Positions 874 to 39,413 of a stretch of DNA of 64,000 nt are shown here, in pieces. Position 1 is the stretch's first letter. Each line of letters begins with the position of its first letter. Both the position numbers and the translations under genes were made by a program. Below the pieces are notes generated by a model, which was not told the DNA's origin, ran no database searches, and worked only from the letters and a program-made list of their open reading frames with translations. The stretch comes from a virus, in the IMG/VR virus record IMGVR_UViG_3300032397_000006, positions 32,001 to 96,000 of that record; one strand, 5' to 3'.

Positions 874-1039
874 GGCTACCTTCCATTCCGCTTCCACCAC
901 CCGCACCGCCTTTGGCCTTTGCTCGGAGACACGCCCTCCCGTCCGGGCGATCATGATCTCGCATGAACGCAGCCCAGTTCTTACTCCAAGTTCGAACCTT
1001 GCAATGTGGACATTGCAGCCTGCTGTCTTTCTTTTCCAT
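860..1039 (-). CDS. small Cys/His (Zn-finger-like) hypothetical protein
   Basis: ATG 1039 follows the repeated promoter/RBS cassette; CPHC...H..C. Confidence 0.55.
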   Translation of the reverse strand: MEKKDSRLQCPHCKVRTWSKNWAAFMRDHDRPDGRACLRAKAKGGAGGGSGMEGSRAQN

Positions 1040-6128: not shown

Positions 6129-7877
6129 TCAATCCTCCGTGATCTCGATCGTCTGCTCAGCGCCACGCACTACTCGAGTCACGCGCGCCTTACGTAGCTC
6201 GTTCGTCGCAAACTGCGCGATCGCCCTCGCCGATTTCCGCGCTTGCTGCGAAATCAGCTTGTCGTCGCCCTCGTCGTCGTCGCCCTGTGCGGCCCACGGC
6301 GGCGTCTGCCCGTCCTGGTGGAGCAAGTTATCGTCGGGCTCCTCGTCGGGCTGCGCTGGCCCCGCCGCGCCTGCGCCCGGGGGCTGCCCGGGCTCCCCTT
6401 GCCCAGGCTCCCCGCCTTGCTGCTGTTGCTGCGCGGCTGCGTCCTTTTGAAGCGCCCACTGGATCCAGGTGGAATTCAGAATCGCCTTACCCTGTTCGCC
6501 GGGCAGTGGCTTCATGTCCTCTTGAGCTCGGATCTCGTTGACCGTCTTGTAGGTAGAGCCGTCCTTCGACAACGCTTCGCGATCCGCTTCCTCACCCGAG
6601 CCGAACATACCGCCGAAAATGAATTCGAAGTCGGGCGCGAGATCCCAAATCAGGTGGCTGTTGATCACGTCCGTAAAGTGATCGGATAGCGGACGCAGGC
6701 CCTTGTCTTTCGACTCCGCGAGTTTCGATTCTTGATCGCCCGTGTTGAGCGAACTCGACTGCCCAGTGTTGCCGAACTGGAAATTGATCTCGAGCGGATC
6801 GACGCCGTACACCGCGCAGATCAGCTTAGTCACCCAATCCATCCACGCCGAGAATTCCATTTCTCGGTTGTTGGAGTGCATCGACACCCATTGAATGTCT
6901 TCGCTGTTTAGGATCGGCGTACGCCACGCATTCTCGACGCCGGAGATCATCGAATACCACTGGCGCCGGAAGGCACGCATTTGCTTATCCGGGATCGTAC
7001 CCTTGATATTAAGCAGCCCCTTTACCGCGCTGCCTTGCTGGAAAAAGGCCTGGTTATACTGGAATCCGAAAAGCCACGCAGTCACGAGGCGAATGATCTG
7101 CTCGATCGGCGAAAACCCAAACCCGTTCGTACGCAGGTCAGAGCGGGGATTCATGATGCACCACGCGAGCTCATCGTATGCGAACTCAGCGATCACCGTG
7201 TTTTCGTAGACCTGGACGTAGCTCACGCGCTGCCGCATTTCCGCCATGCCTGCATGCTCAACGTCGAGCACCGCGGGACGGATCGTTTCGCTTGGTAACG
7301 CAATGAAACGCGACACGCGCCCTTCTCGATCGGAGAGCTTTTCAAAGGCCCACTGATCGTAGGTCAGGGTGTCGCGCAGCCCCTTTTTCAAGAACGAGCG
7401 GAAGCTATCCCGGTCTCGAGCTCGCTCGCCGGTCTGCAGCACGCCGGTAGTCTCGAGCATGCGCTCAATTTCCATCGCGCGTTTACGCTCGACCGGAGTC
7501 ATGCTCCGATTTCGATCACGCCGATCTCGCAAGATCACGCGATAGCCCTTGTCATACTTCCCTTGTTGCGGGCGAGCGAACTGCGCCATTTGATTCGTGC
7601 GCAGCTGAATGATCGCAGCGAGGGGGGCGCACGTCATGGACATGTGCCGCAAAGCCTCGTAGGTCAGCATGGACGGACGCTGGCGCCACCCTCCCCAATC
7701 GTTGATCGCGTAGGGATCGAAGAACATCGCCTTAGGCTTTTCTTGCGTAGGCTCCGCGAGCCCACGCGCCTGCAGCGCCTTCACCATTTCATCGGCGGAG
7801 ATATCCTCGTTGCTCCCATTTGCCCACGCGCTGAGCGCGTTAACAGACCGTCGCCGGATATCGTCAATGATCCCCAT
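6129..7877 (-). CDS. phage portal protein
   Basis: GFSPIEQ, YNQAFFQQGSAVKGLLNI, MEFSAWMDW..KLICAVYGVDPLEI, KDKGLRPL, TVNEIRA motifs. Confidence 0.93.
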   Translation of the reverse strand: MGIIDDIRRRSVNALSAWANGSNEDISADEMVKALQARGLAEPTQEKPKAMFFDPYAINDWGGWRQRPSMLTYEALRHMSMTCAPLAAIIQLRTNQMAQFARPQQGKYDKGYRVILRDRRDRNRSMTPVERKRAMEIERMLETTGVLQTGERARDRDSFRSFLKKGLRDTLTYDQWAFEKLSDREGRVSRFIALPSETIRPAVLDVEHAGMAEMRQRVSYVQVYENTVIAEFAYDELAWCIMNPRSDLRTNGFGFSPIEQIIRLVTAWLFGFQYNQAFFQQGSAVKGLLNIKGTIPDKQMRAFRRQWYSMISGVENAWRTPILNSEDIQWVSMHSNNREMEFSAWMDWVTKLICAVYGVDPLEINFQFGNTGQSSSLNTGDQESKLAESKDKGLRPLSDHFTDVINSHLIWDLAPDFEFIFGGMFGSGEEADREALSKDGSTYKTVNEIRAQEDMKPLPGEQGKAILNSTWIQWALQKDAAAQQQQQGGEPGQGEPGQPPGAGAAGPAQPDEEPDDNLLHQDGQTPPWAAQGDDDEGDDKLISQQARKSARAIAQFATNELRKARVTRVVRGAEQTIEITED

Positions 7878-7886
7878 TTGCCTGCC

Positions 7887-9860
7887 TTAGCCGTGAGGGC
7901 AGGAACATGCCCCGAATGCGTGCGTGAGCATATCCGTTTGCTGCACCGCACGGTAACCGTGGATCACGCAGTCGCCCGCGATCGAAGCTTTTGCTACACG
8001 GTCGCGCTCGCTGTAGTCGAGCGCCACGTTTGCGGCGCGCCCGAAAGTCGGCACCTGCCGATCGTCTGCGAATCGCACCAACTTGAGATGCGAGGGGGCG
8101 ACAGAGAGCCGCGTCGAGGAACTGTGCGCGTGCTGGTTTGCGTCGAGCGCTTTGAACCAATCGTTTCCCTGACTGAGCTGAAACACCGCACCGCCGATGC
8201 CCGCCGATCCTGTCGCCGTGTGGCTGTCCTCGTCGGTGGGTAGCGTGCTTTTCGCCGCCAGCGCTTCGGTCACACCGATGATTTGTCGCTCGCGCAAGAT
8301 CTTGGCTACCGCGTCCTGCGTGACCTTGTAGCGCGACGCGGCTGCTCGCAAATTCTTACTCGTGCCCAGCGACTGCACGAGCTGCCCCATAATGGCTTGA
8401 GCCATTGCTTGCTCGTTGTACATTTGCTGCGGCGATTCTTGCGACACCACGCCGTAGCTCGTCTCGATAAAGCTCACGAGATACGGCATGAGAAACCGCT
8501 CCGGAATCGCGACGTCGGTACCGTCGTCTGCAAAGCCGTCGAGTCCCTTGCGCAGCACGTTGCGCTGCAACGCGTGGAAAAGTGATTTCCCAAGAGCACG
8601 CGCGCTTTTCTTGACCCTGAACGGATTCTGCTTTTCTTGCTCAGCTGCGTACTCGCGATCGAGGCGCTCTGCATACTCGCGCGCTTCCGCTTGCGGTTCG
8701 TACGTGTCCAGGTGTTCCTTGGCTGCGGCCTCGTGCTTCTCCGCTTCAGAATGAAAGCCGTACTTCCTGTGATCCTCTGCGACGATCAAATGCGCTTCTG
8801 CTGCGCGTTTGTGTAGCACTTTCTTGTTTTTTGCGCGCTTATTCGACGCTTCCATATCCGCAATCTCTGCGTCTGCTTTCTTAGCGCGCAGCAGACGGTG
8901 GATTTTCTCGTCGACCGCAACGGGCGCGGGAGGCGCAGAGCCCTCGATATACGCGTATTGCCAGCCTCCCTTACCGTCTGGCTTGCGCGTAATGTACTTG
9001 TGCCCAGGTCGCTCCGAATTCCAGCTCGATCCCTCCGCCTTAAACATGGAGGATTTTCCGAACGGCTTCTTTCCGCCGAACGCGGGAGGCTTCTTTTTCG
9101 GCTTGGCCTGATCGCCACCGAACGGCTTAGCCTTTGGCTTCGCGCCGAACTGCTGCGCGGGCTTTCCTGTACCGCCGTCTGCATCCTGATCGTCAGGTAC
9201 GCCGTCGTCGTCGGCATCCACGTCCTGATCGTCGGGCACGCCGTCCCCGTCCTGATCAGCATCCTGATCGTCAGGCACACCGTCCCCGTCCTGATCGGGC
9301 GCGTCCTGATCGGGCTGCTCGTCGCCGGGACCACCGCCGCCAGCCTCGAGCCCTTGCCCGCCCTGCACCGCACGCACGAGCTTGCGCACAAGCTTGTGGT
9401 ACGTGTCGAGCAGCGCCATGGAGTTATGGTGCTGCGCGCCGTGAAATCCCTTCGCGGCGTAGTAGTCGCGCTCTGCATCGGCGATTTGCTGCACGAGTGC
9501 CTGAGGGTCTTCGCTCGCGTCGCCACCTGCGTCCGCGCCGTCGTCGCCCTCCGGCAGATCCTCCCCATCGCCCTCGTCGTCGAAGCCCTCGTCGTCGCCT
9601 TCCTCGCCCGCGCCGTCGTCGAGCTCGTCACCGTCACCATCACCAGGCCCGGGCTCGCCCTCGTCGCCATCGGGCTCCTCGCCCTGATCGTCGCCCTGCC
9701 CGTCGTCGGGTGCCGTGTCAGACGCGTCCGGAGCTCCGCTGTTCGGATCCTGATCGTCGGGCACACCGTCCCCGTCCTGATCATTCTCCTCGTCAGCGCC
9801 CGCCTTTTTCTTGGCGAACGGCGGCACGGCTTTCAGCAAAAGATCGATCGCGTCTAGCAT
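7887..9860 (-). CDS. tagged head-associated protein with acidic DxDGDGVPDDQD repeats
   Basis: 657 aa; thrombospondin type-3-like Ca-binding repeats; one GHKY..PDGKGGW tag; many phi-x-K-[AS] sites; adjacent to the portal. Confidence 0.7.
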   Translation of the reverse strand: MLDAIDLLLKAVPPFAKKKAGADEENDQDGDGVPDDQDPNSGAPDASDTAPDDGQGDDQGEEPDGDEGEPGPGDGDGDELDDGAGEEGDDEGFDDEGDGEDLPEGDDGADAGGDASEDPQALVQQIADAERDYYAAKGFHGAQHHNSMALLDTYHKLVRKLVRAVQGGQGLEAGGGGPGDEQPDQDAPDQDGDGVPDDQDADQDGDGVPDDQDVDADDDGVPDDQDADGGTGKPAQQFGAKPKAKPFGGDQAKPKKKPPAFGGKKPFGKSSMFKAEGSSWNSERPGHKYITRKPDGKGGWQYAYIEGSAPPAPVAVDEKIHRLLRAKKADAEIADMEASNKRAKNKKVLHKRAAEAHLIVAEDHRKYGFHSEAEKHEAAAKEHLDTYEPQAEAREYAERLDREYAAEQEKQNPFRVKKSARALGKSLFHALQRNVLRKGLDGFADDGTDVAIPERFLMPYLVSFIETSYGVVSQESPQQMYNEQAMAQAIMGQLVQSLGTSKNLRAAASRYKVTQDAVAKILRERQIIGVTEALAAKSTLPTDEDSHTATGSAGIGGAVFQLSQGNDWFKALDANQHAHSSSTRLSVAPSHLKLVRFADDRQVPTFGRAANVALDYSERDRVAKASIAGDCVIHGYRAVQQTDMLTHAFGACSCPHG

Positions 9861-9921
9861 AGGTCTCCCCTCGGATTCTCGCCGAGAGTACCCTAGCGCC
9901 TACGCGAGCGCGAGCGTTGAC

Positions 9922-10095
9922 CTACTTCGCCGCGGACTCGCGTGCAACGCACGCACGGAATCGGACAACATCCTCGCTATCCTCGAGACTTGAATCCGCC
10001 CTGTCGTCGCTGTCGTCGCGCACGTAGTTTTTCAAGCGTTCAAGCATATCCTCGCGACTGAACGAGGCCTTTCTTGGTTTCTGATCCTCCATCAC
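9922..10095 (-). CDS. small acidic hypothetical protein
   Basis: Start overlaps the stop of the zeta-domain gene. Confidence 0.5.
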   Translation of the reverse strand: MMEDQKPRKASFSREDMLERLKNYVRDDSDDRADSSLEDSEDVVRFRACVARESAAK

Positions 10096-11387
10096 ACCCT
10101 CCGGAGCACGAGCTTTACAGCTCGCATAGACTTCATCCAACCACGGGCGCGCGCGATCAAATGTCGGCGTAATCCCGTCTGTTTGAATTTTCGCACATAG
10201 TTCGGATCAATAACAACGTCGGGCTGATTTTCTCCGCCCGCCCACACTAGGCGCGGTTTCGGGCCTGCGTTGTCAAATAGCGAGAATTCATGAGCTCTAC
10301 GCGCTATCTGCTCGAAATTCCCAGGAATGACGTGGTGCGCTTCCCGCACGAAATTGTCAGGCACGTAACGCCCGGTATTCCGCGCTCGGGAGCCCACGCG
10401 GGAGACAGCCTCAGCGAGCGGAATGTGTGGCATCACGAGGTGCACGTGGTAGCCCGCGGCTTTCAGTGCCTCGATTCGCCCAATGAATTTCTCCGTGTTT
10501 TTCCCCGTGCCGTCGAGAATCAAATTCTTGCGCTCTGCCACAGCGCGAGCTCGGACCTTTTCGCCGAGGTCGCTGGACTCCTCGTGTGCCATGGCCGCGG
10601 CATCTTTCGCCGTCACCGTCGATCCGTCCGCTGTGAGTCCGTACGCGAGAGCTCGCTGATACTCAGGTAGCTTTTCCTTACACGCGTCTGGATCGGACAC
10701 GACGAAATCATTGTGGTCGCCCACTAGCGTGGCGAGGATCGAGCCCTTGCCGACGCCGGAGCCTCCCATGGTGACGATCGCCGTGGGCGTGCGATCGAGC
10801 GGCACGGGCTTCACGTGCTTGGTAAATGAATCCACGATCGCCGCGTGGAGCGCTTTACGCTCAGGCGTGTAATCCTTGAAGCGCACCGGGCGAATACGAC
10901 CGACCTCGATTGTGTGCGCGGTTTTCGTTTCCGCAGGAAGCCCGATCGAAGTCGCGGATTCGAGCCAAGCGCGATCGCGCTTGGTTGCGTGCGTTGCGCG
11001 CTCCGCGTCTGAAAATACGTGCACCACTTCGGCCGGGCTCACGATCGGGAAACTGCTGGGCGCCTCGCGACGCTGCACCGGCTTTGTGCCCGTGTGTCCG
11101 TAGTCGTAGTTCCAGCCGCCCTTACCATCTGGCGTGCGACGAATGTATTTATGCCCGGGCCGCTCCTCGCCCTTTTCCGACTTGAGCAAATCGAGCGGGA
11201 TCACGTGCGCCTTTTGTGTCGGCTGCTGCTGCGCTTGCTGTCGAGGAAAGCGAGCTCGAAATCCGCGCTCCCTCGAGCGTCGGATGTCCGAATATTTCTT
11301 AGGCTGCGCGAGCCCTTGTGCGAGGCCTCCGCGCAGCATATCGGCGAGGCGTGCCGTCTCGCGTGGATCCTTCGGCGGTAGGCTCAC
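10092..11387 (-). CDS. tagged zeta-toxin-family P-loop kinase
   Basis: GGSGVGKG Walker A, DPDACKEKLPEY, AHEESS, NLILDGT, GRYVP, FSLFDN; one tag; GTGA-coupled start at 11387. Confidence 0.88.
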   Translation of the reverse strand: MSLPPKDPRETARLADMLRGGLAQGLAQPKKYSDIRRSRERGFRARFPRQQAQQQPTQKAHVIPLDLLKSEKGEERPGHKYIRRTPDGKGGWNYDYGHTGTKPVQRREAPSSFPIVSPAEVVHVFSDAERATHATKRDRAWLESATSIGLPAETKTAHTIEVGRIRPVRFKDYTPERKALHAAIVDSFTKHVKPVPLDRTPTAIVTMGGSGVGKGSILATLVGDHNDFVVSDPDACKEKLPEYQRALAYGLTADGSTVTAKDAAAMAHEESSDLGEKVRARAVAERKNLILDGTGKNTEKFIGRIEALKAAGYHVHLVMPHIPLAEAVSRVGSRARNTGRYVPDNFVREAHHVIPGNFEQIARRAHEFSLFDNAGPKPRLVWAGGENQPDVVIDPNYVRKFKQTGLRRHLIARARGWMKSMRAVKLVLRRV

Positions 11388-14300
11388 GTGTCCCCCCAAA
11401 TGCGCTTTCCTGCGGTCGCGCCCTGATAAATGTGCGAGGCGATTTTGCCTGCACGGTGCTGATCTTCAATGTAACTCATGGAGTCTCGATAAATCGAGTC
11501 TGCATTTATTGCGCGCGCACTGTCTGGCATGCTGTCGCCCAACGCTACGTTCGGTTTGCCCCCTGGAAATGTCACCTCAGCGAATACGAAATCCGCGTGA
11601 TCCTTGTGCGCTTCGTGGAATTTCGAGAAGTTTTTCGCGCCCTCTGCGTAGCTGTCGGCGAATACGCGTGCGTCGACCATACGCCCCGCGCCCACCGCAC
11701 GTGCGACAGCGCCTGGCCAAGCGCGCTTTGGATCCGAGTGCACAAACATGAACGTGGGCTTTATCCCACGTTTCGCGCACTCAGAAATCAACCACTCGTT
11801 CTCCGTTGCGTTCTGCTCGCCTGCCGCGTCCCAGGTAGCAGCTACTGACTTCGGCAGATCAGGACGCGCGGCAAGGCCTACGCCTTTGCCCGCCGCACAG
11901 CCGCCGCTCGTGACCAAGATCTTACGGTCTCCCGGTGCCATTTTCGCGATCTCGTCAAGGCGCGTGATAAAGGCACGCTTCGCGATCGCGTTCGCAGTCT
12001 GATGCAGCGCAGTGTTGTACAAGCTCCGCGCCTTGGCACGCTCGAGATTCATCGGCTCGCCTGGCTTATCCGGAGGCAAGTCGTCGCGCTTCCAGTCGGC
12101 GAGCAATGCCTTCGCGCCATCTGTTTCGAACACGTAATTGTTCTTTTTCGCGATCTCGCCGAAAGCCTGAGCTGTACCGTTCGGGTCGCGCTCGAATGCG
12201 TCCGCGAAACGCGTCTCGATCGCACGCTCCTCGTGCGTGAGGTTAGGCAGCTTCGGCACACCAGGCGGGGGCAGCACAGCATCGCCCGGAATGCCGACGC
12301 GTGCGGCTTTCTCGTTCGGCTTCTGCGGCGTGGCGCTCCTCGAGAGCGGCTTACGCTTGACGGCTTGGCCTTGCGCAGATCGCGCCGTGCGTGGTGGCGC
12401 GTTCGTGTAGAAATACTGCCAGCCGCCCTTACCATCTGGCTTGCGCCGCATGTACTTGTGGCCGGCGCGTTCTTGCCCCGGTACAAATGCCTTTTTCATC
12501 GCACGACGGCGCACGCAAAACGTCGTCTGCGATTCCTTCGCACCGGCTTCTACACTGCGCAGTTTCTTGTAGTAGTCCGGACGCTCGCACAGGTGATCGA
12601 GGGCGATATCCGCGGCTTTCTCGAGATCCTTTGTGTGCTCGAGCTCGACCTGCATTCCTGCCTGTAGATCGGTCGCTGTCCAGCGCGCATGCTCCCACTC
12701 CACACCGAGGCGCTTCGCAGCGCTCATAGCTGCATCGTGCGAAACACGAAGTGCTTTCGACTTCCGCGTAGTGTCAGTGGCGCAGCTCGCGCAAGGCACA
12801 ACGGGATCGCAGCCAGAGCAGCTCTTTTTCAGCCCCTTTTTCGCCTTCGCGCGAGCTCGGGCCTTACGCCCCTTTGCGCGGTGCGACCACTCGAGCGCCT
12901 TACCTTCTGGCAGCTTGCCCTCAGCTTCTGCAGCGAAAGCCCAACGGCGCTGCTTTTCGCTAAACGGGTGCTGCATCTTGCCCTTCGCGAAAGCTTCAAG
13001 CTCGTCGAGCGGATCGAGTGATTTCTTTTTCTCAGCTGCCGCCAGCTGCTTTGCTACGCCGTGCGCATAGCTTTCAGCCAGCAGAGAAGCTCCGCCAAAT
13101 TCGACATCCTTTGGTGCCACGTGCGACATCTCGCGCACAAAGTGCTCGGCCTCCGCTTTGCTCGTGAGTGCTCCGCCCGCGTTGATGGAGTATCCGCTCG
13201 GAATATGCGTGACGTGGTAAATGCCGTACTGCCCGCGCGTGATTCCGTAATCGCCGATCGCCGGCATGGACGTGACCTCAGGATCGCGGATTTCCTTACC
13301 GTCTTTATCGCGGATCGCCAAGTGCACGTCGACCGTGCGCAGCTTCTCAGGCTTGATGCCCGCGACCTTTTCAGCTGCGCGCATAGCGTCGCGGTGCTTC
13401 GCGACCTTTTCGAATGCAGATTCCATCGCCTCGTTCAGACCAGGCGCCGCTTTGCGTGAAAACACGTAGGGGTGGCTGTTCTCCCAAGACTCGCGCCGCG
13501 CCTTTGAAGCGACGTCGAGATCCTTACGCGCTTCGGAGAGCTGCTGACTGTGGGAGGCAGCCTCGCGCGCGTGCTCGTGTGGCGTATCGCCCGCGACGAC
13601 GTGTGAATAGACGTAGTGCCAGCCCCCGCGACCATCGGGCTTGCGAGTCAGGTATTTGTGCCCTGCAACCTCGTCGCCCTTCGCGGCCTTGCTGAGCTCG
13701 CCGAGATTGTCTAGCGCATCGCCACTCTTGAGAGCCAGCATTCCCCATTTTTGCGACTCGGCGAGGCCTGCGCGCATGCCTGAGAACGCACCCTCAGACA
13801 TACCTGCCCGCTCGAGAGCAGCATCTAAACGCTCGCGTGTGACCTTCGCATGCGCCTTGGCCTCAGCGTGCCGCGTCGAACCCGGAGTGTGCGCGTATTG
13901 GCTGGCGACACGCTCTGCGCTCGCGCGCTCGTGCTCGCGCGACGCTGCCACCACAGCGCGCTGTGCAAGTGGCGCCTTACGCTTCGCATGCGCGTCTGCG
14001 TAGTCGTAGCGCCAGCCGCCGTGCCCGTTCGGCTCGCGCTTGAGATACTTGTGGCTGGTTGCCTCGTCGCCCTTGGAGGCCTTGATCAAAGGCAAGAGTG
14101 CATCGATCGCGTCGGCTGATTTATACGCGAGCGAAGTCGTCTTGAGGGCAACCCTACGCACGGTGCTAGGACTCGCGCGCAAACGGGACACGGTTTGCTT
14201 GTTCCAGAAATGCTCGATCTTACGTTTCGCTTTGCGCTTGGCTTTACGCGCAGCGAGCGCGCCCTTGATCTTTGCGTAGACGTAACTCCAACCGCCCTTA

Positions 14301-15586
14301 CCGTCAGGCTTGCGCTCCGTGTACTGATGCCCTGCCTGCTCCCCGCCGCGTACAGCATCAGCCTTCGCTGCTTTAATAAACAGCACAGGTGCCGATTTCT
14401 CGACTTTTGCCGGACGCCACGCATCGGGCTTCGTGTCAGGCTTTACGCCGTCTGCATTCTTGTCGTAGGAGCTGTCTTTTATGTAGCCACGCGGCACGAC
14501 GTCGAACGTGCAGTAGATGCCCATAATACCGATCGTGCTCCCCCAATTTTCGGTTGTGATCGGCGACGCTTTGTAGACGCTGTGCCGCTCAGTAAGGATC
14601 TTTTTTCGCATCTCTTTCACAGCACCCCACAGAGCATCTTTCTCGCCCTTGTTCGCGTAGGTGCTGTGGAACTTGATCGTCGCCTTAGCAGTCGGGCGAA
14701 ATGTCTTCGGGTGCGTTTCGCGTATCACGCTAACGGTCCCTTTTTCGCCGAACGTCTTCGGTCCTTTCTCGATATCAGAGAGCAGCTTGTCTATTTCCGG
14801 TGGCGGCAGCTCGCCCTCTTTTTTAGAGGCCGCATGCTCCGCGCTACCCTCTGCGGGATATTCATAATCCCAGCCGCCCTTACCGTCTGGCTTGCGCGTA
14901 AGGTATTTGTGCCCCGGGCGCTCCTCGCCCTTGGCTAGAGATTTCTCGTATTTGAATTCCGCGGTCTCCCGCTCGTATTTCGGCACTTGATAAGGATCTA
15001 CGTGTTTCCACCGCCCCTCGTGCCATACGGGCTCGAGATTCTTTTTCTTGCGCGCAGCTGGTAAAGGCGCCGTAAATAGCGGCGTAGCCGGCTTGTGCTC
15101 ATCGATTCGCGCTTCGGAATAGCCGCCAGGCAAGCGCCGCGTGCGCACATACGAAGGGTAATTGCCGAGACTGCGCGGCATGTCGAAATCAACGTTGTCG
15201 GAAGTCGCGCCGTCTCCCTCCAATAGGTGCCCGAAAACCTTAATCTCTTTCGAGTGCCAGCTCCCGCCCGCCGTGGCCAGGTACACCTTACCGTTATGCG
15301 GCAGCAGAAAAGGCGCGCTGTGCCCCTCGGTCGCGGCTTGCTCGATCGCTTGCTTGAGCACGCTCGGATCAAAGGCGCCCACTTGTTTCTTGTGATCGGC
15401 GGGAGGCTTGTAGCTGTATTTCCATCCGCCTTTACCATCTGGCGAGCGCAGCAGATATTTGTGCCCCTCGACCTCTACGCCCTTCGCCGCTTTCTCGAGT
15501 AGCGCTAGGGGATCGAGCTCAGGCTGAGCTCTCACAAGGCTCAAGCCGATTGCGTGCTTTCGAAGTGCTGAGATCGCATCAGTCAT
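11384..15586 (-). CDS. tagged multi-module (polyvalent) protein: six tags, DUF5661-like domain, C-terminal zeta-like kinase
   Basis: ATGA-coupled start 15586; GMQVELEH...ALDHL.ERPDYY (DUF5661-like); VTSGGCAAGKG P-loop and GRMV motif. Confidence 0.85.
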   Translation of the reverse strand: MTDAISALRKHAIGLSLVRAQPELDPLALLEKAAKGVEVEGHKYLLRSPDGKGGWKYSYKPPADHKKQVGAFDPSVLKQAIEQAATEGHSAPFLLPHNGKVYLATAGGSWHSKEIKVFGHLLEGDGATSDNVDFDMPRSLGNYPSYVRTRRLPGGYSEARIDEHKPATPLFTAPLPAARKKKNLEPVWHEGRWKHVDPYQVPKYERETAEFKYEKSLAKGEERPGHKYLTRKPDGKGGWDYEYPAEGSAEHAASKKEGELPPPEIDKLLSDIEKGPKTFGEKGTVSVIRETHPKTFRPTAKATIKFHSTYANKGEKDALWGAVKEMRKKILTERHSVYKASPITTENWGSTIGIMGIYCTFDVVPRGYIKDSSYDKNADGVKPDTKPDAWRPAKVEKSAPVLFIKAAKADAVRGGEQAGHQYTERKPDGKGGWSYVYAKIKGALAARKAKRKAKRKIEHFWNKQTVSRLRASPSTVRRVALKTTSLAYKSADAIDALLPLIKASKGDEATSHKYLKREPNGHGGWRYDYADAHAKRKAPLAQRAVVAASREHERASAERVASQYAHTPGSTRHAEAKAHAKVTRERLDAALERAGMSEGAFSGMRAGLAESQKWGMLALKSGDALDNLGELSKAAKGDEVAGHKYLTRKPDGRGGWHYVYSHVVAGDTPHEHAREAASHSQQLSEARKDLDVASKARRESWENSHPYVFSRKAAPGLNEAMESAFEKVAKHRDAMRAAEKVAGIKPEKLRTVDVHLAIRDKDGKEIRDPEVTSMPAIGDYGITRGQYGIYHVTHIPSGYSINAGGALTSKAEAEHFVREMSHVAPKDVEFGGASLLAESYAHGVAKQLAAAEKKKSLDPLDELEAFAKGKMQHPFSEKQRRWAFAAEAEGKLPEGKALEWSHRAKGRKARARAKAKKGLKKSCSGCDPVVPCASCATDTTRKSKALRVSHDAAMSAAKRLGVEWEHARWTATDLQAGMQVELEHTKDLEKAADIALDHLCERPDYYKKLRSVEAGAKESQTTFCVRRRAMKKAFVPGQERAGHKYMRRKPDGKGGWQYFYTNAPPRTARSAQGQAVKRKPLSRSATPQKPNEKAARVGIPGDAVLPPPGVPKLPNLTHEERAIETRFADAFERDPNGTAQAFGEIAKKNNYVFETDGAKALLADWKRDDLPPDKPGEPMNLERAKARSLYNTALHQTANAIAKRAFITRLDEIAKMAPGDRKILVTSGGCAAGKGVGLAARPDLPKSVAATWDAAGEQNATENEWLISECAKRGIKPTFMFVHSDPKRAWPGAVARAVGAGRMVDARVFADSYAEGAKNFSKFHEAHKDHADFVFAEVTFPGGKPNVALGDSMPDSARAINADSIYRDSMSYIEDQHRAGKIASHIYQGATAGKRIWGDT

Positions 15587-18500
15587 CGCTTCCCCGTTTC
15601 CACAGCGTCCCGGATCGTAGCCCATTCTCGCACGTTGAAGCGTATCGAAGGCTTCTGCGGCGCCGCCCCATGGAAAGCGTATTTACCACTGTTCCGGCGT
15701 GCGAGGGCCTTCCTTCGGCGCCTGGAGGCCTTCACTTCCTTTTCGGTCTGCACGGTCCCGTAGATGCCCTCGAAATCGGGGGACTCCTGCGAAGGGCTGT
15801 AGCGCTGCACGACGTAGGATTTCACGAGAGCTCCGTGGTTGCTCGGGTCGGTCACGAACGCGGCGAAATCTTCGAACGCGACCGCGCGCACTTGCCCCAA
15901 GAATCGAGGATCGTCGTAGTGCGCTTGGTAAGCCTGCACCGCGGCACCGAGATTCGAAAACCCGAGCATGCACTTCTGTTCGTCTACGTGCACGAAGTCG
16001 GGCGACTTGAGCTGATCGATCACGAACACGTAAGGCGCCATCTTGTCGGGCCCGACGTAGACGTCCACGTGATCGCCATCCGTGCCTTGCGTGCGCCGCA
16101 CATAGCCGTAGTCGTGCACCATCTTTGTTTTGCCTGCGCGCTTCGCGTGTGCGTCGTACCAGTGCCGGTAAGATCCTGCCTGGTTTTCGACGCTCACCTT
16201 TAGCCCGCGGAAATCCCGACGCCTGTGCAGCTTGCGCGACTTCTCGAGCGGAGCTTTCAAGCTGTCGATCACTTCTGTAATCGCATCGTCGCTGTCCTCA
16301 ATATGCGCGCCGAAACGCGCGAAAGCCTGCCTGATCGCAGGTTCAATCATGCGCCGCCCCCCGGGCTCGCTCGCGAGCTCTGCGTACTCCTCTCGATATT
16401 CAGCCAGCGCATTGATCGCGTGCGACACTGCTTGCTTTCTGCCCTCAGGCGAAGCAATAGGCTGCAGCTCGTAGGAGCGTTGATCCTCTTTTGATAGAGG
16501 CGCGTCGTAGGTCACGGTGCCGTGCCGAAAAGCAGGATGCTTTCCAATCGAGGAAAATCCTTTAGGCGCTGTGAACGTACCGATCGGCCTATTCTGCATA
16601 CCGTACACGTAGTGCCAGCCTCCCTTACCATCAGGGTGACGCTCCGCGTAAAGGTGCCCCGCTTGCTCCTCGCCCTTTGCCGCTTTACGCAACACGAGCA
16701 GCGCCTTCAATACAGCATCCTGAAACGCGTGGCGCTTATCCCAATCGAAATCGAGCGCGAATTTCGACGGTCTGCCGGGTGTCTCGACGCGCGTATAGAA
16801 ATCCTCAGCTGCGGGCTTATATTCGTAGCCCTTGCCTTTATGGTGCTCGCCCGCGTGTCCGCCCGTCGTGAAATGCATCTCATGCGCTCCGCGGTGCGAA
16901 TGAATTACTGAGTCTTGATTAAACTGCTTTCCGAGCGCGCGCATAACACCAAACTCGCTAGGCGAATCGTGGTGCACCATGAAGGCATTACTTTTCTGCG
17001 GCTTCGCGCTCTCGTGATGCACGATAAAGCTCGCCTCACGCGAACCATAATGCCCCTCGACCTCGGTATAGCGGAGCTTGCGCTTTTTCAGCTCGCCTCG
17101 CAGGCGTTCGTGTCGCGCTTTGAATTCCGCGTGATCCTCAGACATGTCCTTTTCGCGCGCGTCGTTTCCGTTGCGACCTGCGCTGATAATCGAATAGGTG
17201 CCGTGCTCGAGCAGATCGTCCAGCTGCGGACGCGTGAGACGCACCTCGCCCGCGGGTTTGCGTGGAGGTCTGTCGCTCGGGTGCCCGGGCAGATCATAGC
17301 CGTAGCGCCAGCCTCCCTTACCGTCTGGCGTGCGGCGCACGTACTTGTGCCCCGGACGCTCGCCTTCGCTGCCCTCGCGCGCTTTACGGATCGCTTCGCC
17401 CCACGGAATGATATGCATACTTTTCTCCGTACCCTCTGCGCGGGCTTTGACGGCTGCGTAAGTGTCAGGGTGCACCGCAGGCGCATCGCCATCGTCGCGC
17501 GTCGCGTTGCCCTTCATGTCCACGCCCAGCCACATTCGCCAGTGTCGATCAAGCTGCCCGATCGAGGAAATCACTCCGGGCTTAGCGAGCAGTTCCTTTG
17601 CCATCTTTTCGCGCTCGGCCTTCGGCAGCTTGCTCGCGTGATACTGCTCGACCTCGAGTTTCTGTTGCTGCTCTGCGGCAACCTTGTCCTGCGCTGCGCG
17701 CTTCGCTTGCGCCGCTTCGCGTTCGGCCTGCGCGGCTGCCTCGCGTGCTGGAGCGCCCGCTTCCCACTCCGCTTGCTTTTGCTTCTCTGCAGCCTTCGCG
17801 GATTTCTTTTCAGCCTCTCGCCGCGCTTCGCGTTCGGCCTCGACCTTCTCTGTCTCGTGCGGCAACGAAATACGATGGCGCTTGAAAGCATCCGGATCCG
17901 GATCGCCGAGCTCCCCTTGTGCTTCCTGAATCGCTGCTGCGGGGACCTGCAAATCATCGCGTGCCATCACGAGCGTTTCTTCTTCGCCCTCGTACGCACC
18001 TAGATCAGCCTCGTGCTCCGCGTGAAACAAGACGGCTTCAACAGGCACGTCGAGCGTGACCACGGCGCCGCGCGTTGCGTACTGCGTGCCGAAGTCGTGC
18101 GCGCTTTCGTGGTCGCTGGTCCAGCTCGACAAGCTGCGCACTGCAACGGGAACGGTGCCGCCCTGCGCTTGCTTCGCTTGCTCGACAAGGGCCTTACCCT
18201 GGTCGTGCGCAATGCCGCGATGAATGCGCACTGTGCGCTCGCCCTTGGCAGCGAATAGCGCCTGCGTCGCTGCGTACTGCCTGATCGCCATCGCTTCGCA
18301 GTCGTCGATTTCCTTTTTCGAGATACGGGACGCACGCGTAACCGCTTCTGCAAACGTACGCTTTTCGTCTGCGCTTGCGCGACCTCGAGCGATCTTGCCG
18401 ATCAACGCGAGTTGTGGCGTGGTTTTCGTCATCCATTCATTTCGCCAAGCGTTACGCACGTGTGACTCGTCGGAATGATCGGCGAAAGCATCATCCGTGT

Positions 18501-20835
18501 GGGAAATGCCTTTCATGGACGCGGCGAGCGCTGCGATTTTCTTTTTATGCGCAGGCGACATGCCGAGATCAGGAGATACCGCGTAAGTGTTCTGCGCTGC
18601 CGGCGTGCGCACGCCCTTACTGTCCTCGTAGAAGTAGTTATGCCCGCCCTTACCATCGGGCTCACGGCGAATGTATTTGTGTCCCGGGCGCTCGCTGCCT
18701 TCGCTCTTTTTCAGTTTGAATCTGGCGAGCACTTCTGGCTTGCGCATTACGCGCTCGATCGGACGCCCAAAACGGTCAGTATCTTCTCCCTCCTCGGATG
18801 ATTGCGAGCCCAGCAGGAGGGCGTACTTTCCTTGATAGGCTTTTGCGTGATCTAATGCCCGCGAGACGTCGCTACCGTCTCGGCTACCTAGATCAATTGC
18901 GCTAGTCCCGTCGAGAACATCATCCGTAGGTTCACCATCCTCCCAGCGGCGGGACTCTGCTAAAATAGAACCGACCTCAGGTGGATCTGCGTCGTCAACA
19001 ATGCGCAAGCCGATCGTATGAAATTCAGGCGCATATTCTTTCAGTATCGACTTCACGGCGTCTATGTGCAACGGCGAGATGTCAGTTCTCTCGCGCTGCT
19101 TGAGTCTATCTTCGAATTGGAGGTCGGAGAATTGCCGCGTAGGCGCGAGCTCGCGCACTTTCGCAACATGCTCGCGCAGCTGATCGAGCGACATCGCGCC
19201 TTCATCGAAAGTCGCGAATAAATCGAGGCTCAAGTCGAGCGCGAGGTGCGGCTCAATCTGAAAATCAATTGCGCGTAGCCCTTTGATCTTGGTGTTGAGC
19301 TCTGCTGCTGCACGCTTACCGATCGGCTGCACGTAGCCGATATCGATCATCTTCGGTTTATCGCCCTCGATCACGAATGAGTTTTCCTTGAATTCAGGCG
19401 CTGTGAATTCGTGCTCGCGCAGCACCTTCGCAATCGTCTGGTGCGCCTCCCACAAGCCTTTCGAACCCCACCCCCCGGGTCTGCCCTCGACCTCAGCGCG
19501 CACGAGCGTGTCAGTGTCCGCGTCGTATTTTTCGAACGAGGGCACGAGGTCTTTCGTGCGCGGATCCTTGCTCAGCACCTCGAGAGCGTGCGCTTCATTC
19601 TTGCGCGAGCTCACGCCGCGGCGACCGACCTTGTACGCGGAGGCTCCATCCGTGAACACGATGCCCTCAGCGCCCGCCCCTAGCAGGCTCAGGGTGCCCG
19701 CTCTCGCGCCAGCCTTCACGGCACGTGCCGCAGCCTGCGGGAGCTCCGCGTGGACGGCGGCAGGCGCGTCCTCGAGTAACTTTGCGACGTCGACCTGTTC
19801 CGGGCGCTCCAACTTTTTCAGCGCTTCGGCCAGATCCTGATCAATGACCAGCTTACCGAAGGCGTCGGCATCCTTGCGGAGCGCGTGCGACATATCGATC
19901 AACTCGAGTGCGAATTTGTCCCGTTGCGCGTCTTGCTTCGGCGGGAACTTCAACACGTGTCGTAGCTGCGCTTCCCACTCATATTCGAGATTCGCGCCGC
20001 GAGGCGTGTAACGCTGTCCATTGCGTGCGTACAGACTCTCAAGTCCGTCGAGATCACTCTGCTGCGGAGACAGATGCCGGTAGCCGTCGTAGGGCTCCGC
20101 CTTGCCCGCCTTGCCTACGTCGAACATGAAGGCCTTACCGTCGTCATCGACACCGATCTGCGGCGTGTCGCCGAGCACGTAGCCGGCTTTGTGCATCGCG
20201 AGCACCGTATCGTGGGCCGCGTCGAGCTGCTCTAGCGTGAGCTTGTCGGGAATGCCGAGATAGCGCTTGATCGTGTAGCCGCGCCCGTCGTGCTCCACGA
20301 AGCGCTCAGGCAGTAGCCCGGGCACTCCGGCATCGCGGAGAGCTTGCTGTGTCTCGTGCTGCTCGCGTGCGACCTCGACAGCTTTCTGCGCTGTCTTGTA
20401 CCAGGGGTTTGACGGCTGATAGGGGACAACCGTGCTGACTTTGACAACGTTGTCCCCTGACTTGAAAACAAGACCGTCGTCGCCCTTACCAAGAAACTCG
20501 GCAGTACCTCCGGTCACGGCGTCGATATCCGGATCTCCGCTTTTCTTATCGCTGACTACGCGGCCTTCTAAATCATCCTTGTACATAGCAAGCGCGTCGT
20601 GCGAAATCTTGTGCCCGTAGCCAGGCACCGTCGCGTGAAAGCCGACGCTCGCGTGCGTGTCGTCGGAATCAAATACTTTCCATTTGAGCGTGCCGCGCAT
20701 TCCGAGCTTTTCGTGCGGCGTAATGTCGATCTCATGCCCCGCTAAATAGCGATAGAGCCAGCCGCCCTTACCATCAGGATGGCGCTCGAGATACTTGTGC
20801 CCCTCTACGGTTTCGCCCTTGGCTGCCTTCTGCAT
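15583..20835 (-). CDS. tagged polyvalent protein: two kinase-like, ART-like, SAM-lyase-like, DarA_C-like and inorganic pyrophosphatase domains
   Basis: 1750 aa with four tags. LGKGDDGLV..VVK..FDVG; LGAGAEGIV..AYK..IDIG; IHRG..SSWT..EEE; IISAGR..GHY..EAS..QDSVI; NRP..APKG..RHG.V.Y..PL..YEL; VENQAGSYR..YGYV..DGDHVDV..DEQKCMLGF. Confidence 0.85.
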   Translation of the reverse strand: MQKAAKGETVEGHKYLERHPDGKGGWLYRYLAGHEIDITPHEKLGMRGTLKWKVFDSDDTHASVGFHATVPGYGHKISHDALAMYKDDLEGRVVSDKKSGDPDIDAVTGGTAEFLGKGDDGLVFKSGDNVVKVSTVVPYQPSNPWYKTAQKAVEVAREQHETQQALRDAGVPGLLPERFVEHDGRGYTIKRYLGIPDKLTLEQLDAAHDTVLAMHKAGYVLGDTPQIGVDDDGKAFMFDVGKAGKAEPYDGYRHLSPQQSDLDGLESLYARNGQRYTPRGANLEYEWEAQLRHVLKFPPKQDAQRDKFALELIDMSHALRKDADAFGKLVIDQDLAEALKKLERPEQVDVAKLLEDAPAAVHAELPQAAARAVKAGARAGTLSLLGAGAEGIVFTDGASAYKVGRRGVSSRKNEAHALEVLSKDPRTKDLVPSFEKYDADTDTLVRAEVEGRPGGWGSKGLWEAHQTIAKVLREHEFTAPEFKENSFVIEGDKPKMIDIGYVQPIGKRAAAELNTKIKGLRAIDFQIEPHLALDLSLDLFATFDEGAMSLDQLREHVAKVRELAPTRQFSDLQFEDRLKQRERTDISPLHIDAVKSILKEYAPEFHTIGLRIVDDADPPEVGSILAESRRWEDGEPTDDVLDGTSAIDLGSRDGSDVSRALDHAKAYQGKYALLLGSQSSEEGEDTDRFGRPIERVMRKPEVLARFKLKKSEGSERPGHKYIRREPDGKGGHNYFYEDSKGVRTPAAQNTYAVSPDLGMSPAHKKKIAALAASMKGISHTDDAFADHSDESHVRNAWRNEWMTKTTPQLALIGKIARGRASADEKRTFAEAVTRASRISKKEIDDCEAMAIRQYAATQALFAAKGERTVRIHRGIAHDQGKALVEQAKQAQGGTVPVAVRSLSSWTSDHESAHDFGTQYATRGAVVTLDVPVEAVLFHAEHEADLGAYEGEEETLVMARDDLQVPAAAIQEAQGELGDPDPDAFKRHRISLPHETEKVEAEREARREAEKKSAKAAEKQKQAEWEAGAPAREAAAQAEREAAQAKRAAQDKVAAEQQQKLEVEQYHASKLPKAEREKMAKELLAKPGVISSIGQLDRHWRMWLGVDMKGNATRDDGDAPAVHPDTYAAVKARAEGTEKSMHIIPWGEAIRKAREGSEGERPGHKYVRRTPDGKGGWRYGYDLPGHPSDRPPRKPAGEVRLTRPQLDDLLEHGTYSIISAGRNGNDAREKDMSEDHAEFKARHERLRGELKKRKLRYTEVEGHYGSREASFIVHHESAKPQKSNAFMVHHDSPSEFGVMRALGKQFNQDSVIHSHRGAHEMHFTTGGHAGEHHKGKGYEYKPAAEDFYTRVETPGRPSKFALDFDWDKRHAFQDAVLKALLVLRKAAKGEEQAGHLYAERHPDGKGGWHYVYGMQNRPIGTFTAPKGFSSIGKHPAFRHGTVTYDAPLSKEDQRSYELQPIASPEGRKQAVSHAINALAEYREEYAELASEPGGRRMIEPAIRQAFARFGAHIEDSDDAITEVIDSLKAPLEKSRKLHRRRDFRGLKVSVENQAGSYRHWYDAHAKRAGKTKMVHDYGYVRRTQGTDGDHVDVYVGPDKMAPYVFVIDQLKSPDFVHVDEQKCMLGFSNLGAAVQAYQAHYDDPRFLGQVRAVAFEDFAAFVTDPSNHGALVKSYVVQRYSPSQESPDFEGIYGTVQTEKEVKASRRRRKALARRNSGKYAFHGAAPQKPSIRFNVREWATIRDAVETGKR

Positions 20836-29949: not shown

Positions 29950-30513
29950 TTAGCTAGTCTCCATTCCCCACGCGTCCCAGCCGCTGACACGCGCACGCGC
30001 AAACAATTCAATTCGCGGCCTGTCGCCGTACAGACTCACGATCTTGTCGCGAATCACCGGAGGCTTCTCCGAGTGCCTTCCGCGACCGTGCAGCACGACC
30101 TGCCCCATTGCACAGTCCAGCAACGGAAAAGGTCGCCCGCGAGGCCTCAGCGTCGCCAGCAGGCATAATTCAGTCGTGGGCTTGGTGCACGTCGGAGGCA
30201 CGCCTTGCCCGTTGATTATCGCGCCTGATTTATTCGTTTTCACCCACACGAACGCGACACCTCGATAGTGCAAGCCCCACGATGCGATCGCGCGAAATGC
30301 GAGGTCCGCACGAGGACACGTGCACCACAGAAACAACGCACCTTCGCGCCCTCGAAACAGCGCGCGGATCGGCATGTCGCAAATCTCGTCGATCGACATC
30401 AGATCGTAGTGCTTACCCGCAGCTCCATCCTTTGTCGCCGAGCCGTACATAGGCCAGGGCGGATCGGCGTAGATCAGATCGTAGCCGGCTGCGTGCTCAC
30501 TGAGCGCGATCAT
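29950..30513 (-). CDS. MT-A70 family N6-adenine methyltransferase
   Basis: YADPPW, HY.LMS.DEI, LFLWCT, FVWVK, HSEKP, IELFAR, GWDAWG; ATGA start at 30513. Confidence 0.92.
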   Translation of the reverse strand: MIALSEHAAGYDLIYADPPWPMYGSATKDGAAGKHYDLMSIDEICDMPIRALFRGREGALFLWCTCPRADLAFRAIASWGLHYRGVAFVWVKTNKSGAIINGQGVPPTCTKPTTELCLLATLRPRGRPFPLLDCAMGQVVLHGRGRHSEKPPVIRDKIVSLYGDRPRIELFARARVSGWDAWGMETS

Positions 30514-30803
30514 TTGCGACACCGCGGCATCCTGCGCGCTAGCGGCACGGTGCGAAGTGCTGCCGTGTGCTCGCGTAGAAAATCGAGCACGTACCGCGTG
30601 GCCTCGGCCTTCGCGTCCTCGATTCCCTTGTGCTCTAACGGCACGCGCGAGATCCCTAGTCGGGGGCAGCTCAACAGCCACTGCGTAGCGGCAAAATCAA
30701 TATGCCGGTGCACGCACAGCTCGCACTGCCCGAATTTCACGCGATGCGCGTACGCGATCGTCGTGCCTGCCCTCGTGTCCTCGATCCAATCGCCCACGCT
30801 CAC
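30510..30803 (-). CDS. hypothetical protein
   Basis: Coupled ORF. Confidence 0.5.
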   Translation of the reverse strand: MSVGDWIEDTRAGTTIAYAHRVKFGQCELCVHRHIDFAATQWLLSCPRLGISRVPLEHKGIEDAKAEATRYVLDFLREHTAALRTVPLARRMPRCRK

Positions 30804-39035: not shown

Positions 39036-39413
39036 CTAGTGCAACTGCGAATTCGTAGGTAGCGCAAACAAAGCCTCCCGCAGCCCAGGGGGGAGATCTG
39101 AAAGTAACGCGGGCTGTGAGTCGAGCATGCGAACGACCTCCGCCAACGTATCGGCCTCGTCGACATCCGCGCAGTTTTCGACCAGTCGCGCAAACGCTAC
39201 CGCTCTAACAAGGCCAACGACGACAGCCAGATAAGGCGCACGCGCTCCAATTGCCACGTGCACGTGTCCGTGCGCGCACACCGAAAGATCAACAGTGAGG
39301 GTCTCAAGTTCCACACTCACGTAAATCGGCACTCTCGACATGCAGGGCGCAAGCTGCTGCAGCAACGCAGGCACACCCAGCGAATCCCAGAAAATAGATC
39401 TGCCCTTACTCAC
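39036..39413 (-). CDS. hypothetical protein
   Basis: Coupled ORF. Confidence 0.5.
   Translation of the reverse strand: MSKGRSIFWDSLGVPALLQQLAPCMSRVPIYVSVELETLTVDLSVCAHGHVHVAIGARAPYLAVVVGLVRAVAFARLVENCADVDEADTLAEVVRMLDSQPALLSDLPPGLREALFALPTNSQLH

Follow-up and report, generated by a model that had tools for sequence, protein, structure and literature searches.

Could a phage bring a SAM lyase into its host ready-made, as one domain of a long protein encoded among its head genes? The question is raised by P0001, a polyvalent-protein ORF of 1750 aa (15583..20835, minus strand) that contains a SAM-lyase-like module among its Pfam domains. It lies in the 64,000 nucleotides analysed here (the window), which come from an uncultured phage of 104 kb known solely as a metagenomic record.

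Family membership and predicted fold of the module

A sequence-only reading of this DNA had picked out a series of strings as similar to a motif pattern of the T3 SAM lyase. That pattern is real, as T3 gene 0.3 (901-1356) reads VLVSAFRS, SRHRHM, GCYRE, TEEK and EQDCVL. The strings quoted from the window are likewise all present, in a single reading frame on the minus strand, that of P0001: YSIISAGR (P0001 residues 1214-1221, window 17173-17196), RHERLRGEL (residues 1241-1249), EGHY (residues 1260-1263), REASF (residues 1266-1270), LGKQFNQDSVI (residues 1301-1311) and FYT (residues 1346-1348, window 16792-16800). The module had been placed at 16750-17200. It does lie there, but the domain as folded in an AF2 model is somewhat larger, covering residues 1201-1364 (16744..17235, minus strand).

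In a Pfam scan, residues 1216-1348 (16792..17190, minus strand) matched S-AdoMet_lyase (PF23780), the curated gathering threshold of which is 28 bits. The score was 35.8 bits (E 9e-9) for the isolated segment, 29.8 bits for full-length P0001 and 34.4 bits for the module in a six-frame genome search, all above that threshold; T3 gp0.3, as the positive reference, scored 143 bits (E 6e-42). PF23780 was also matched by 32 of 36 short relatives, and the Pfam scan gave no match for the overlapping ORFs at 16915-18003 (plus strand), 16522-16911 (plus strand) and 17088-17492 (minus strand). Sequence searches of the PDB with the segment (phmmer) and with the family profile (hmmsearch) found no SAM lyase; thus, the link to SAM lyases is visible through Pfam and fold only. 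At the sequence level the similarity to T3 is marginal, with hhalign E values of about 0.01 at low probability whether the target was T3 alone or a 16-member T3 family profile; these runs, which disagree with each other between G-x-Y and the second helix, were used for residue correspondence alone.

The AF2 model of the module, built as a monomer, has a pLDDT of 93.3 and a pTM of 0.88. An N-terminal helix is followed by a beta-alpha-beta-beta-alpha-beta core and then by C-terminal strands (strands at model residues 19-24, 61-68, 72-79, 115-120, 123-128, 137-145, 153-156 and 163-169; helices at 42-57 and 100-110), and in the model the core and the C-terminal strands together close a barrel that is self-contained and has two helices on its outside. 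When the model was compared with the PDB using Foldseek, the top two matches were both T3 SAM lyase. VIA-align superposed it on the T3 SAM lyase chain 8bb1_E with a Z of 12.5 and an rmsd of 3.5 (132/147 residues aligned), pairing model residues 9-169 with chain residues 3-153, and a further T3 SAM lyase match gave a Z of 12.0; model and enzyme were both covered over almost their whole length. In an independent scan of 48,161 PDB representatives, T3 SAM lyase 7ock_L (Z 11.5) was the sole chain with Z >= 8. Svi3-3 gave Z values of 7.4-7.9 with about 101 residues aligned, unrelated ferredoxin folds reached at most 7.4 with numerous matches at 5-7, and SAM-AMP lyase matched weakly (9gad_E, Z 4.8; 9lqe_G, Z 4.9). 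Fold matches in BFVD included SAM hydrolases of T7-like phages, an ART-PolyVal protein and the 'structural protein' of Flavobacterium phage vB_FspP_elemoC_14-1A; cyanophage P-TIM40 was also among the sources of the matched proteins. Taken together, the module is very probably a homolog of SAM lyases and, as modelled, it is a SAM lyase domain of the T3 type and not of the Svi3-3 type. The assignment to a T3-like lyase in the sequence-only reading, which had named structure prediction against the T3 and Svi3-3 enzymes as its check, therefore stands.

Residues of the predicted SAM site and of MetK contact

Profile alignment places G1261-H-Y1263 (17047..17055, minus strand) on G55-C-Y57 of T3, the counterpart of G56-V-Y58 in Svi3-3, and Q1307-D1308 (16912..16917, minus strand) on Q94-D95 of T3, the counterpart of Q104-E105 in Svi3-3. 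In known enzymes, G-x-Y serves in ribose packing and in a cation-pi contact to the sulfonium (PMC7877911). The glutamate listed as contacting the SAM amino group and 3'-OH is E68 in T3 and E69 in Svi3-3, and its candidate equivalent in the module is E1267 (17035..17037, minus strand), which opens the strand that follows the G-x-Y hairpin in the AF2 model. Because the hhalign runs disagree on this middle segment, the correspondence with T3 E68 rests on position in the model and is a positional match, not a residue-level superposition. The module thus carries Gly and Tyr, a Glu, and a Gln followed by Asp, and the SAM-site residues kept here are those reported as conserved or critical (PMC7877911; 10.1101/2023.02.27.530186).

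Over 152 representative domains, G was conserved in 150, Y in 145, E in 149 and Q in 151. The position after the conserved Gln is D in 114 domains and N or E in 26 more (140/152 together). S1218, N1222 and R1241 are further near-invariant polar residues in the same set.

The T3 residues that contact MetK behave differently in the two groups: T4, N9, Q103, T104 and H105 are invariant within the T3 family, whereas the profile alignment pairs Q103 and T104 with G and A of the module, and T4 and N9 are likewise not kept. The N-terminal tail that binds MetK in T3 is replaced in the module by an internal helix. With these contacts lost, the module is not expected to act through MetK binding as well; it belongs to the wider S-AdoMet_lyase family, outside the MetK-binding T3 subgroup proper.

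Polyvalent architecture, genomic setting and relatives

The suggestion that the module sits inside a polyprotein was borne out by the other domains of the same ORF. When segments were scanned singly, an ADP-ribosyltransferase-like domain (DRAT match; 17965..18252, minus strand; 26.1 bits against a cut-off of 25), S-AdoMet_lyase, a DarA_C domain (16456..16611, minus strand; 29.9 bits against a cut-off of 27) and an InPase domain of the polyvalent-protein type (15856..16224, minus strand; 114 bits, E 5e-32 to 6e-33) all passed their cut-offs. P0001 therefore joins at least two unrelated effector domains, including ones restricted to phage polyvalent proteins. A kinase-like fold considered for residues 90-560 on the basis of two glycine-rich loops was dropped, as it had no Pfam or PDB sequence match.

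P0001 also contains four copies of a GHKY..PDGKGGW motif with a repeat unit of about 26 residues. In the motif search (GHKY..R.PDGKGGW.Y.Y), copy 3 (17287..17364, minus strand) lies immediately upstream of the module and copy 4 (16594..16671, minus strand) immediately downstream. Three other proteins on the minus strand carry the same tag: a second large protein of 1413 aa with five copies and a DUF5661 match (11384..15625), a 435-aa protein that combines a Zeta-toxin domain with a single copy (10092..11399), and a 657-aa protein with one copy and no family match (7887..9860). Family scans of all four tagged ORFs and of those downstream of portal detected no MuF domain and no metallopeptidase or prohead-protease family.

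P0001 is encoded beside head genes, between the terminase large subunit upstream (Terminase_6C; 35228..36820) and the portal protein downstream (phrog_12, E 2.5e-51; 6129..7877), all on the minus strand, and the Zeta-toxin protein is also downstream. Two SAM-dependent methyltransferases had been noted in the phage, and a family scan recovered both within the window, an N6/N4 DNA methyltransferase (39406..40191, minus strand) and an MT-A70 family enzyme (29950..30681, minus strand); a third SAM-dependent DNA methyltransferase (N6_N4) lies just beyond it, giving a total of three. The sequence-only reading took the pairing of methyltransferases with a SAM lyase to imply that they would act at different times.

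At 50% identity the module family falls into at least 461 clusters, the majority of them within larger proteins, and the closest relative (P0003) shares 86% identity. A related-locus search seeded with a 9-member alignment found module fusions in 25 other IMG/VR viral loci, with Zeta toxin, Topo IB, ParB, LPD1, RelA/SpoT, SNF2, NUDIX and mCpol as partners; in eight related loci the module had a portal homolog no more than 10 kb away, and InPase was nearby in six. The module thus recurs across phage polyvalent proteins. A tblastn search of the module against 50,697 GenBank phage records and 72,556 plasmids gave no match, nor did megablast of the P0001 ORF against phages, and tblastn of whole P0001 matched through the InPase domain alone. 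A clade of this size with no tblastn match in GenBank phage and plasmid records has probably been overlooked. Searching the literature for PF23780, for DUF3293 and for SAM-lyase domains within virion or polyvalent proteins gave no result; the main text of the polyvalent-protein paper (PMC5512222) does not mention a SAM-degrading domain, and the searchable SAM-lyase papers do not mention the module in polyvalent proteins.

Proposed function and comparison with known systems

We infer the catalysis, packaging, processing, injection and defence target of the module as follows. By family and fold, residues about 1201-1364 of P0001 are a T3-type SAM lyase domain; because its barrel, flanked by two helices, is self-contained like that of T3 gp0.3, the module should act singly, without an Svi3-3-like trimer. 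Its G-x-Y, Glu and Gln-Asp would hold SAM in the reactive conformation, and the expected reaction is the conversion of SAM to 5'-methylthioadenosine and homoserine lactone. The module would be one cargo of the polyvalent protein, alongside ART, DarA_C and InPase. P0001 would be synthesised late, packaged in the capsid, possibly cleaved into modules at the GHKY-PDGKGGW junctions, and would enter the next host together with the DNA. There, the delivered module would lower SAM and weaken type I and III restriction and BREX before phage gene expression. The module is probably active on SAM. We lean slightly towards its delivery in the virion, and the overall reading, a T3-type SAM lyase packaged and injected as polyvalent cargo and acting before expression, is one that we favour with similar caution. 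It is a more tentative idea, somewhat less likely than not, that a widespread, monomeric T3-type clade of at least 461 clusters is pre-made in capsids, excised at GHKY-PDGKGGW junctions and injected, with depletion of SAM or of a SAM-derived signal as an immediate, transcription-free counter-defence.

Against the packaged-lyase reading stand the marginal sequence similarity to T3, the failure of the family scans to find a head-incorporation domain or a protease, and the following points on kinetics and competition. A bacterial SAM pool is of the order of 1e5 molecules. At the turnover reported for Svi3-3, 9.5 per second (PMC7877911), 10-100 injected copies would need minutes to work through such a pool, resynthesis aside. 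In addition, a SAM lyase synthesised late would compete with the three methyltransferases of the phage itself.

The kinetic point has a bearing on an unlikely but substantive alternative, that the module has the same fold and chemistry but acts on SAM-AMP, the messenger of type III CRISPR-CorA, or on another sulfonium nucleoside, as an injected anti-signalling enzyme. A scarce signal would be a better target for a few injected molecules than about 1e5 SAM, SAM-AMP lyases have the same fold, and an anti-CRISPR role has been proposed for one that a phage encodes (PMC12255297). One relative of the module is fused to mCpol, and the near-invariant S1218, N1222 and R1241 fall outside the set of residues with assigned roles. 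The structural match is far poorer, however, with Z values of 4.8-4.9 for SAM-AMP lyase against 12.5 for T3 SAM lyase; the conserved SAM-site residues have no discriminating power here, since their contacts are with methionine and ribose, which SAM and SAM-AMP both contain. We give an equally low probability to an active SAM lyase that stays unpackaged and works late in the producing cell, where it might shut down methylation or metabolism in the host or leave the progeny DNA only partly methylated, the position in the head block then being uninformative on delivery. It draws on the finding that the family scan recognised no capsid-targeting or MuF domain in P0001, packaging being deduced solely from gene position and from DarA_C and InPase, which are packaged, or predicted to be, elsewhere. 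Yet a late SAM lyase would oppose the three phage methyltransferases, the module turns up repeatedly in typical polyvalent architectures adjoining portal genes, and P1 DarA is a precedent, head-packaged antirestriction being its established role (PMC5512222); InPase-type polyvalent proteins are also predicted to be virion-packaged (PMC5512222).

That the module is catalytically silent, serving to bind SAM or MTA, to inhibit the SAM synthetase of the host or to act as a structural spacer, seems very improbable. Catalytically dead T3 SAMase does retain partial anti-BREX activity via MetK binding (10.1101/2023.02.27.530186), but the catalytic and ligand residues are strongly conserved across the 152 clusters, the T3 MetK-contact residues are not, and an internal domain has no free equivalent of the MetK-binding N-terminal tail. 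Least credible of all, and scarcely worth entertaining, is that a generic ferredoxin-like domain resembles SAM lyases by chance. Such folds are common and hhalign against the narrow profile of the T3 family falls short of significance by itself, but the module and 32 of 36 relatives score above the curated Pfam threshold, T3 SAM lyase scores 4-5 Z units above all unrelated folds in an end-to-end alignment that includes the C-terminal strands, and the motif residues coincide with those of SAM lyases.

To our knowledge, the characterised SAM lyases (T3 gp0.3, Svi3-3, Orf1 and Svi3-7) are all small free proteins from early genes, and the injected anti-restriction cargo that we know of so far consists of DNA-binding or DNA- or protein-modifying proteins, such as DarA/DarB and Alt. 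If true, a SAM lyase in a head-associated polyvalent protein would extend this cargo to cofactor depletion, add a named enzymatic function to the polyvalent-protein domain catalogue, and explain how a phage with three methyltransferases also carries a SAM destroyer. Capsid delivery would be a mode that is not known to have been described for any SAM lyase, in which the anti-restriction enzyme arrives ready-made with the phage DNA and not as a post-infection product. A quantitative question follows, whether a few injected enzyme molecules can reduce SAM so quickly that type I restriction or BREX is weakened.

Among known systems, T3 gp0.3 (PDB 8BB1, 7OCK; PF23780) is closest, being of the same Pfam family and the best structural match, aligned end to end with the C-terminal strands that close the barrel taken in. 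The SA.R, RH, G-x-Y, Glu and Q-D motifs are common to both, and the presumed reaction and the anti-restriction and anti-BREX logic are the same. T3 SAMase is a monomeric nine-stranded barrel (10.1101/2023.02.27.530186), a form that suits a module within a long chain. T3 gp0.3 differs in being a free protein of 152 aa and the product of the first gene expressed after infection, whereas the module is internal to P0001, the gene of which lies with the late head genes. Identity in the structural alignment is 12-14%, the hairpin from G-x-Y to Glu is shorter in the module, a variable insert of about 20 residues (model 80-99, low pLDDT) is present, and the MetK-binding tail and beta4-beta5 loop residues of T3 are not conserved. 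Svi3-3 (PDB 6ZM9, 6ZNB) has the ferredoxin-like core and the Gly/Tyr/Glu/Gln(Glu) ligand site in common with the module, but it forms an obligate trimer, its active sites lying at the subunit interfaces, and lacks the C-terminal strands, whereas the module resembles the self-contained T3 form. The SAM-AMP lyase of type III CRISPR-CorA (PDB 9GAD) belongs to the same fold superfamily and, as a lyase, likewise has the methionine moiety as its point of attack, but it is trimeric and matches the module weakly (Z 4.8). Beyond the lyases, P0001 resembles the published polyvalent proteins (Iyer et al. 2017, PMC5512222; packaged prototypes P1 DarA/DarB and T4 Alt), in which unrelated effector domains are strung along one polypeptide, and differs from them in that no MuF or metallopeptidase was detected, its modules being punctuated instead by the motif of about 26 residues.

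Location, family and fold of the module

The interval 16750-17200 falls within a 5253-base minus-strand ORF (15583..20835) that encodes a polyvalent protein of 1750 aa (P0001), and all strings quoted in the sequence-only reading were recovered in its frame, at residues 1214-1348. None of the ORFs that overlap this stretch, whether in another frame or on the plus strand, gave a family match. The source IMG/VR virus record, of which the window spans bases 32001-96000, is 104,085 bases long, with a G+C content of ~59%, and is rated complete by CheckV. Residues 1216-1348 of P0001 matched the S-adenosylmethionine lyase family of Pfam (PF23780; curated cut-off 28 bits) with 29.8 bits when the entire protein was scored and with 35.8 bits (E 9e-9) when the excised segment P0002 (window:16726-17253:-) was used. 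The translated gene 0.3 of phage T3 (NC_003298) matches PF23780 at E 6e-42; thus, the family is the one to which the classical SAMase belongs. Direct comparison by hhalign with T3 or a T3-family profile was much weaker than the Pfam match (E ~0.01), and neither phmmer nor the family profile found a SAM lyase among all PDB sequences.

Among 1.84 billion representative proteins scanned, 461 relatives of the module were found at E <= 0.001, including 260 at E <= 1e-10. The AlphaFold2 model of the segment, built from an alignment of P0002 with 35 short relatives (A1), had a pLDDT of 93.3 and a pTM of 0.88 and was uncertain only at segment residues 80-99; its elements run helix, strand, helix, two strands, helix, two strands and three more strands. 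When the model was compared with 350,542 PDB chains using Foldseek, the T3 SAM lyase entries 7ock and 8bb1 came out on top, with Svi3-3 close behind. VIA-align gave Z 12.5 for 8bb1_E (rmsd 3.5, 132/147 aligned, model 9-169 on chain 3-153), Z 12.0 for 7ock_J and Z 7.9 for Svi3-3, compared with Z <= 7.4 for unrelated ferredoxin folds. Furthermore, when 48,161 representative chains were scanned independently of Foldseek, T3 SAMase was the sole chain with Z >= 8 (11.5), and Svi3-3 ranked second (Z 7.4). BFVD matches of the model comprised an 'ART-PolyVal-like' protein, a Flavobacterium phage 'structural protein', cyanophage proteins and small SAM hydrolases of T7-like phages. The T3-type SAM-lyase-like module proposed from the sequence is therefore upheld, with a score above the PF23780 cut-off and T3 SAM lyase as the best fold match.

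Pfam DUF3293 was also matched, at E <= 0.001, by 16 of the 36 relatives over the first helix and hairpin, and a BFVD 'DUF3293 domain-containing protein' likewise matches the model fold; one possibility is that DUF3293 represents a bacterial branch within the SAM-lyase superfamily. In RefSeq record NC_003298, T3 gene 0.3 (L002:901-1359) is misannotated as 'SAM-dependent methyltransferase'. One Pectobacterium phage homolog bears the same name, and the label could spread to homologs.

Active-site residues

Few conserved residues have been named in SAM lyases: G56, Y58, E69, Q104 and E105 in Svi3-3, where E69 mutants lose activity >1000-fold (PMC7877911), and E68, Q94 and D95 in T3 SAMase, where E68Q/Q94A is inactive (10.1101/2023.02.27.530186). 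Profile-profile alignment placed T3 G55-C-Y57 on G1261-H-Y1263 and T3 Q94-D95 on Q1307-D1308 of P0001. E1267 is the first residue of the strand after the G-x-Y hairpin, the site of T3 E68 and Svi3-3 E69, and is their putative equivalent in the model by position, since the module has a shorter hairpin and two hhalign runs differ on that segment. Among 152 representative domains, G is present in 150, Y in 145 (with W in five more), E in 149 and Q in 151, while the D1308 position holds D in 114, N in 13 and E in 13; S1218, N1222 and R1241 are additional near-invariant polar residues. This pattern of sequence conservation argues for an active enzyme over a decayed fold. The MetK-binding residues of T3 are invariant in T3's own family but absent from the module in the profile alignment, so the module is not predicted to inhibit SAM synthetase.

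Architecture, neighbours and relatives

A segment-wise scan of P0001 (minus strand) also detected a DRAT-like ADP-ribosyltransferase domain (26.1 bits, cut-off 25), a DarA_C domain (29.9 bits, cut-off 27) and an InPase domain (114 bits). In addition, a motif of ~26 residues, GHKY..R.PDGKGGW.Y.Y, occurs at residues ~8-33, 714-739, 1158-1183 and 1389-1414, its third and fourth copies bracketing the SAM-lyase module. By the strict pattern, there are 4, 5, 1 and 1 copies, respectively, in four consecutive large ORFs (7887-20835, minus strand), which encode P0001 and proteins of 1413 aa (with DUF5661), 435 aa (with a Zeta-toxin domain) and 657 aa. Each copy immediately precedes a different module. 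The motif matches Pfam DUF3892 weakly and in part, and cleavage, targeting or a recombination anchor are candidate roles.

The portal gene (6129-7877) follows the 657-aa ORF, and the terminase large subunit (35228-36820) lies upstream of P0001. The portal is closest to those of SPO1/CP-51-like Herelleviridae of Firmicutes (34-38% identity), despite the 59% G+C here. The three ORFs downstream of it, the expected place of the prohead protease and capsid protein, had no family match. Downstream of the head block, an ORF of 213 aa (313-954, minus strand) carries an HD_4 domain (HD-type phosphohydrolase). At P0001 residues 90-560 (19156-20568), two similar blocks each have a glycine-rich loop ahead of V.KV or Y.KV; tandem kinase-like modules were considered there and rejected, Pfam and PDB sequence searches giving no match.

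The module was found in 25 IMG/VR loci, in ORFs of 181-1860 aa, fused to partners including Zeta toxin, eukaryotic-type topoisomerase I, ParB, LPD1, RelA/SpoT, SNF2 helicases, DUF5661, NUDIX and mCpol. Eight loci have a portal homolog within 10 kb, and six have an InPase domain nearby. Of 151 representative proteins, only 8 have the GHKY-type motif, which is therefore not a general trait of the module's clade. Searches with tblastn yielded no match to the module among GenBank phages or PLSDB plasmids. One viral ORF (L022:7694-10450) joins the module to NUDIX and mCpol (minimal CRISPR polymerase), an unusual pairing for a phage polyvalent protein; a 1860-aa viral protein (L016:6824-12403) combines a eukaryotic-type topoisomerase IB catalytic core, ParB_N, HTH_ParB, the module and LPD1.

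Since current Pfam detects the domain, its annotation as such is not new; what is new is the architecture, a SAM lyase inside a polyvalent protein, and its implications. The main text of Iyer et al. (PMC5512222) does not mention a SAM-degrading domain, and full-text literature searches found no paper linking SAM lyases to polyvalent or virion proteins and none mentioning PF23780 or DUF3293.

Substrate and delivery

The module is best read as an injected SAM lyase, a combined statement for which we infer activity, packaging and processing, and which the balance of probability slightly favours. The bacterial SAM pool is of the order of 1e5 molecules. At the turnover of Svi3-3, 9.5 per second (PMC7877911), tens of enzyme molecules would take minutes to use up such a pool, which counts against this reading. 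The two SAM-dependent methyltransferases noticed from the sequence are indeed in the window (N6/N4 methylase, 39406-40191; MT-A70 enzyme, 29950-30681), and a third, N6_N4_Mtase (genome 30886-31812; 111 bits), lies just upstream of it; a SAM lyase made late would be in competition with these phage enzymes, which also counts against an injected SAM lyase. Because of these doubts, SAM-AMP (PMC12255297) or another SAM-derived signal of low abundance, instead of SAM, is a serious alternative substrate.

Svi3-3 forms a trimer whose active sites lie between subunits, and MetK-bound T3 SAMase is described as a monomeric nine-stranded barrel (10.1101/2023.02.27.530186). The alignment of our model with T3 SAMase extends through T3's extra C-terminal strands, and a self-contained barrel of this kind would suit a domain built into a chain of 1750 residues.
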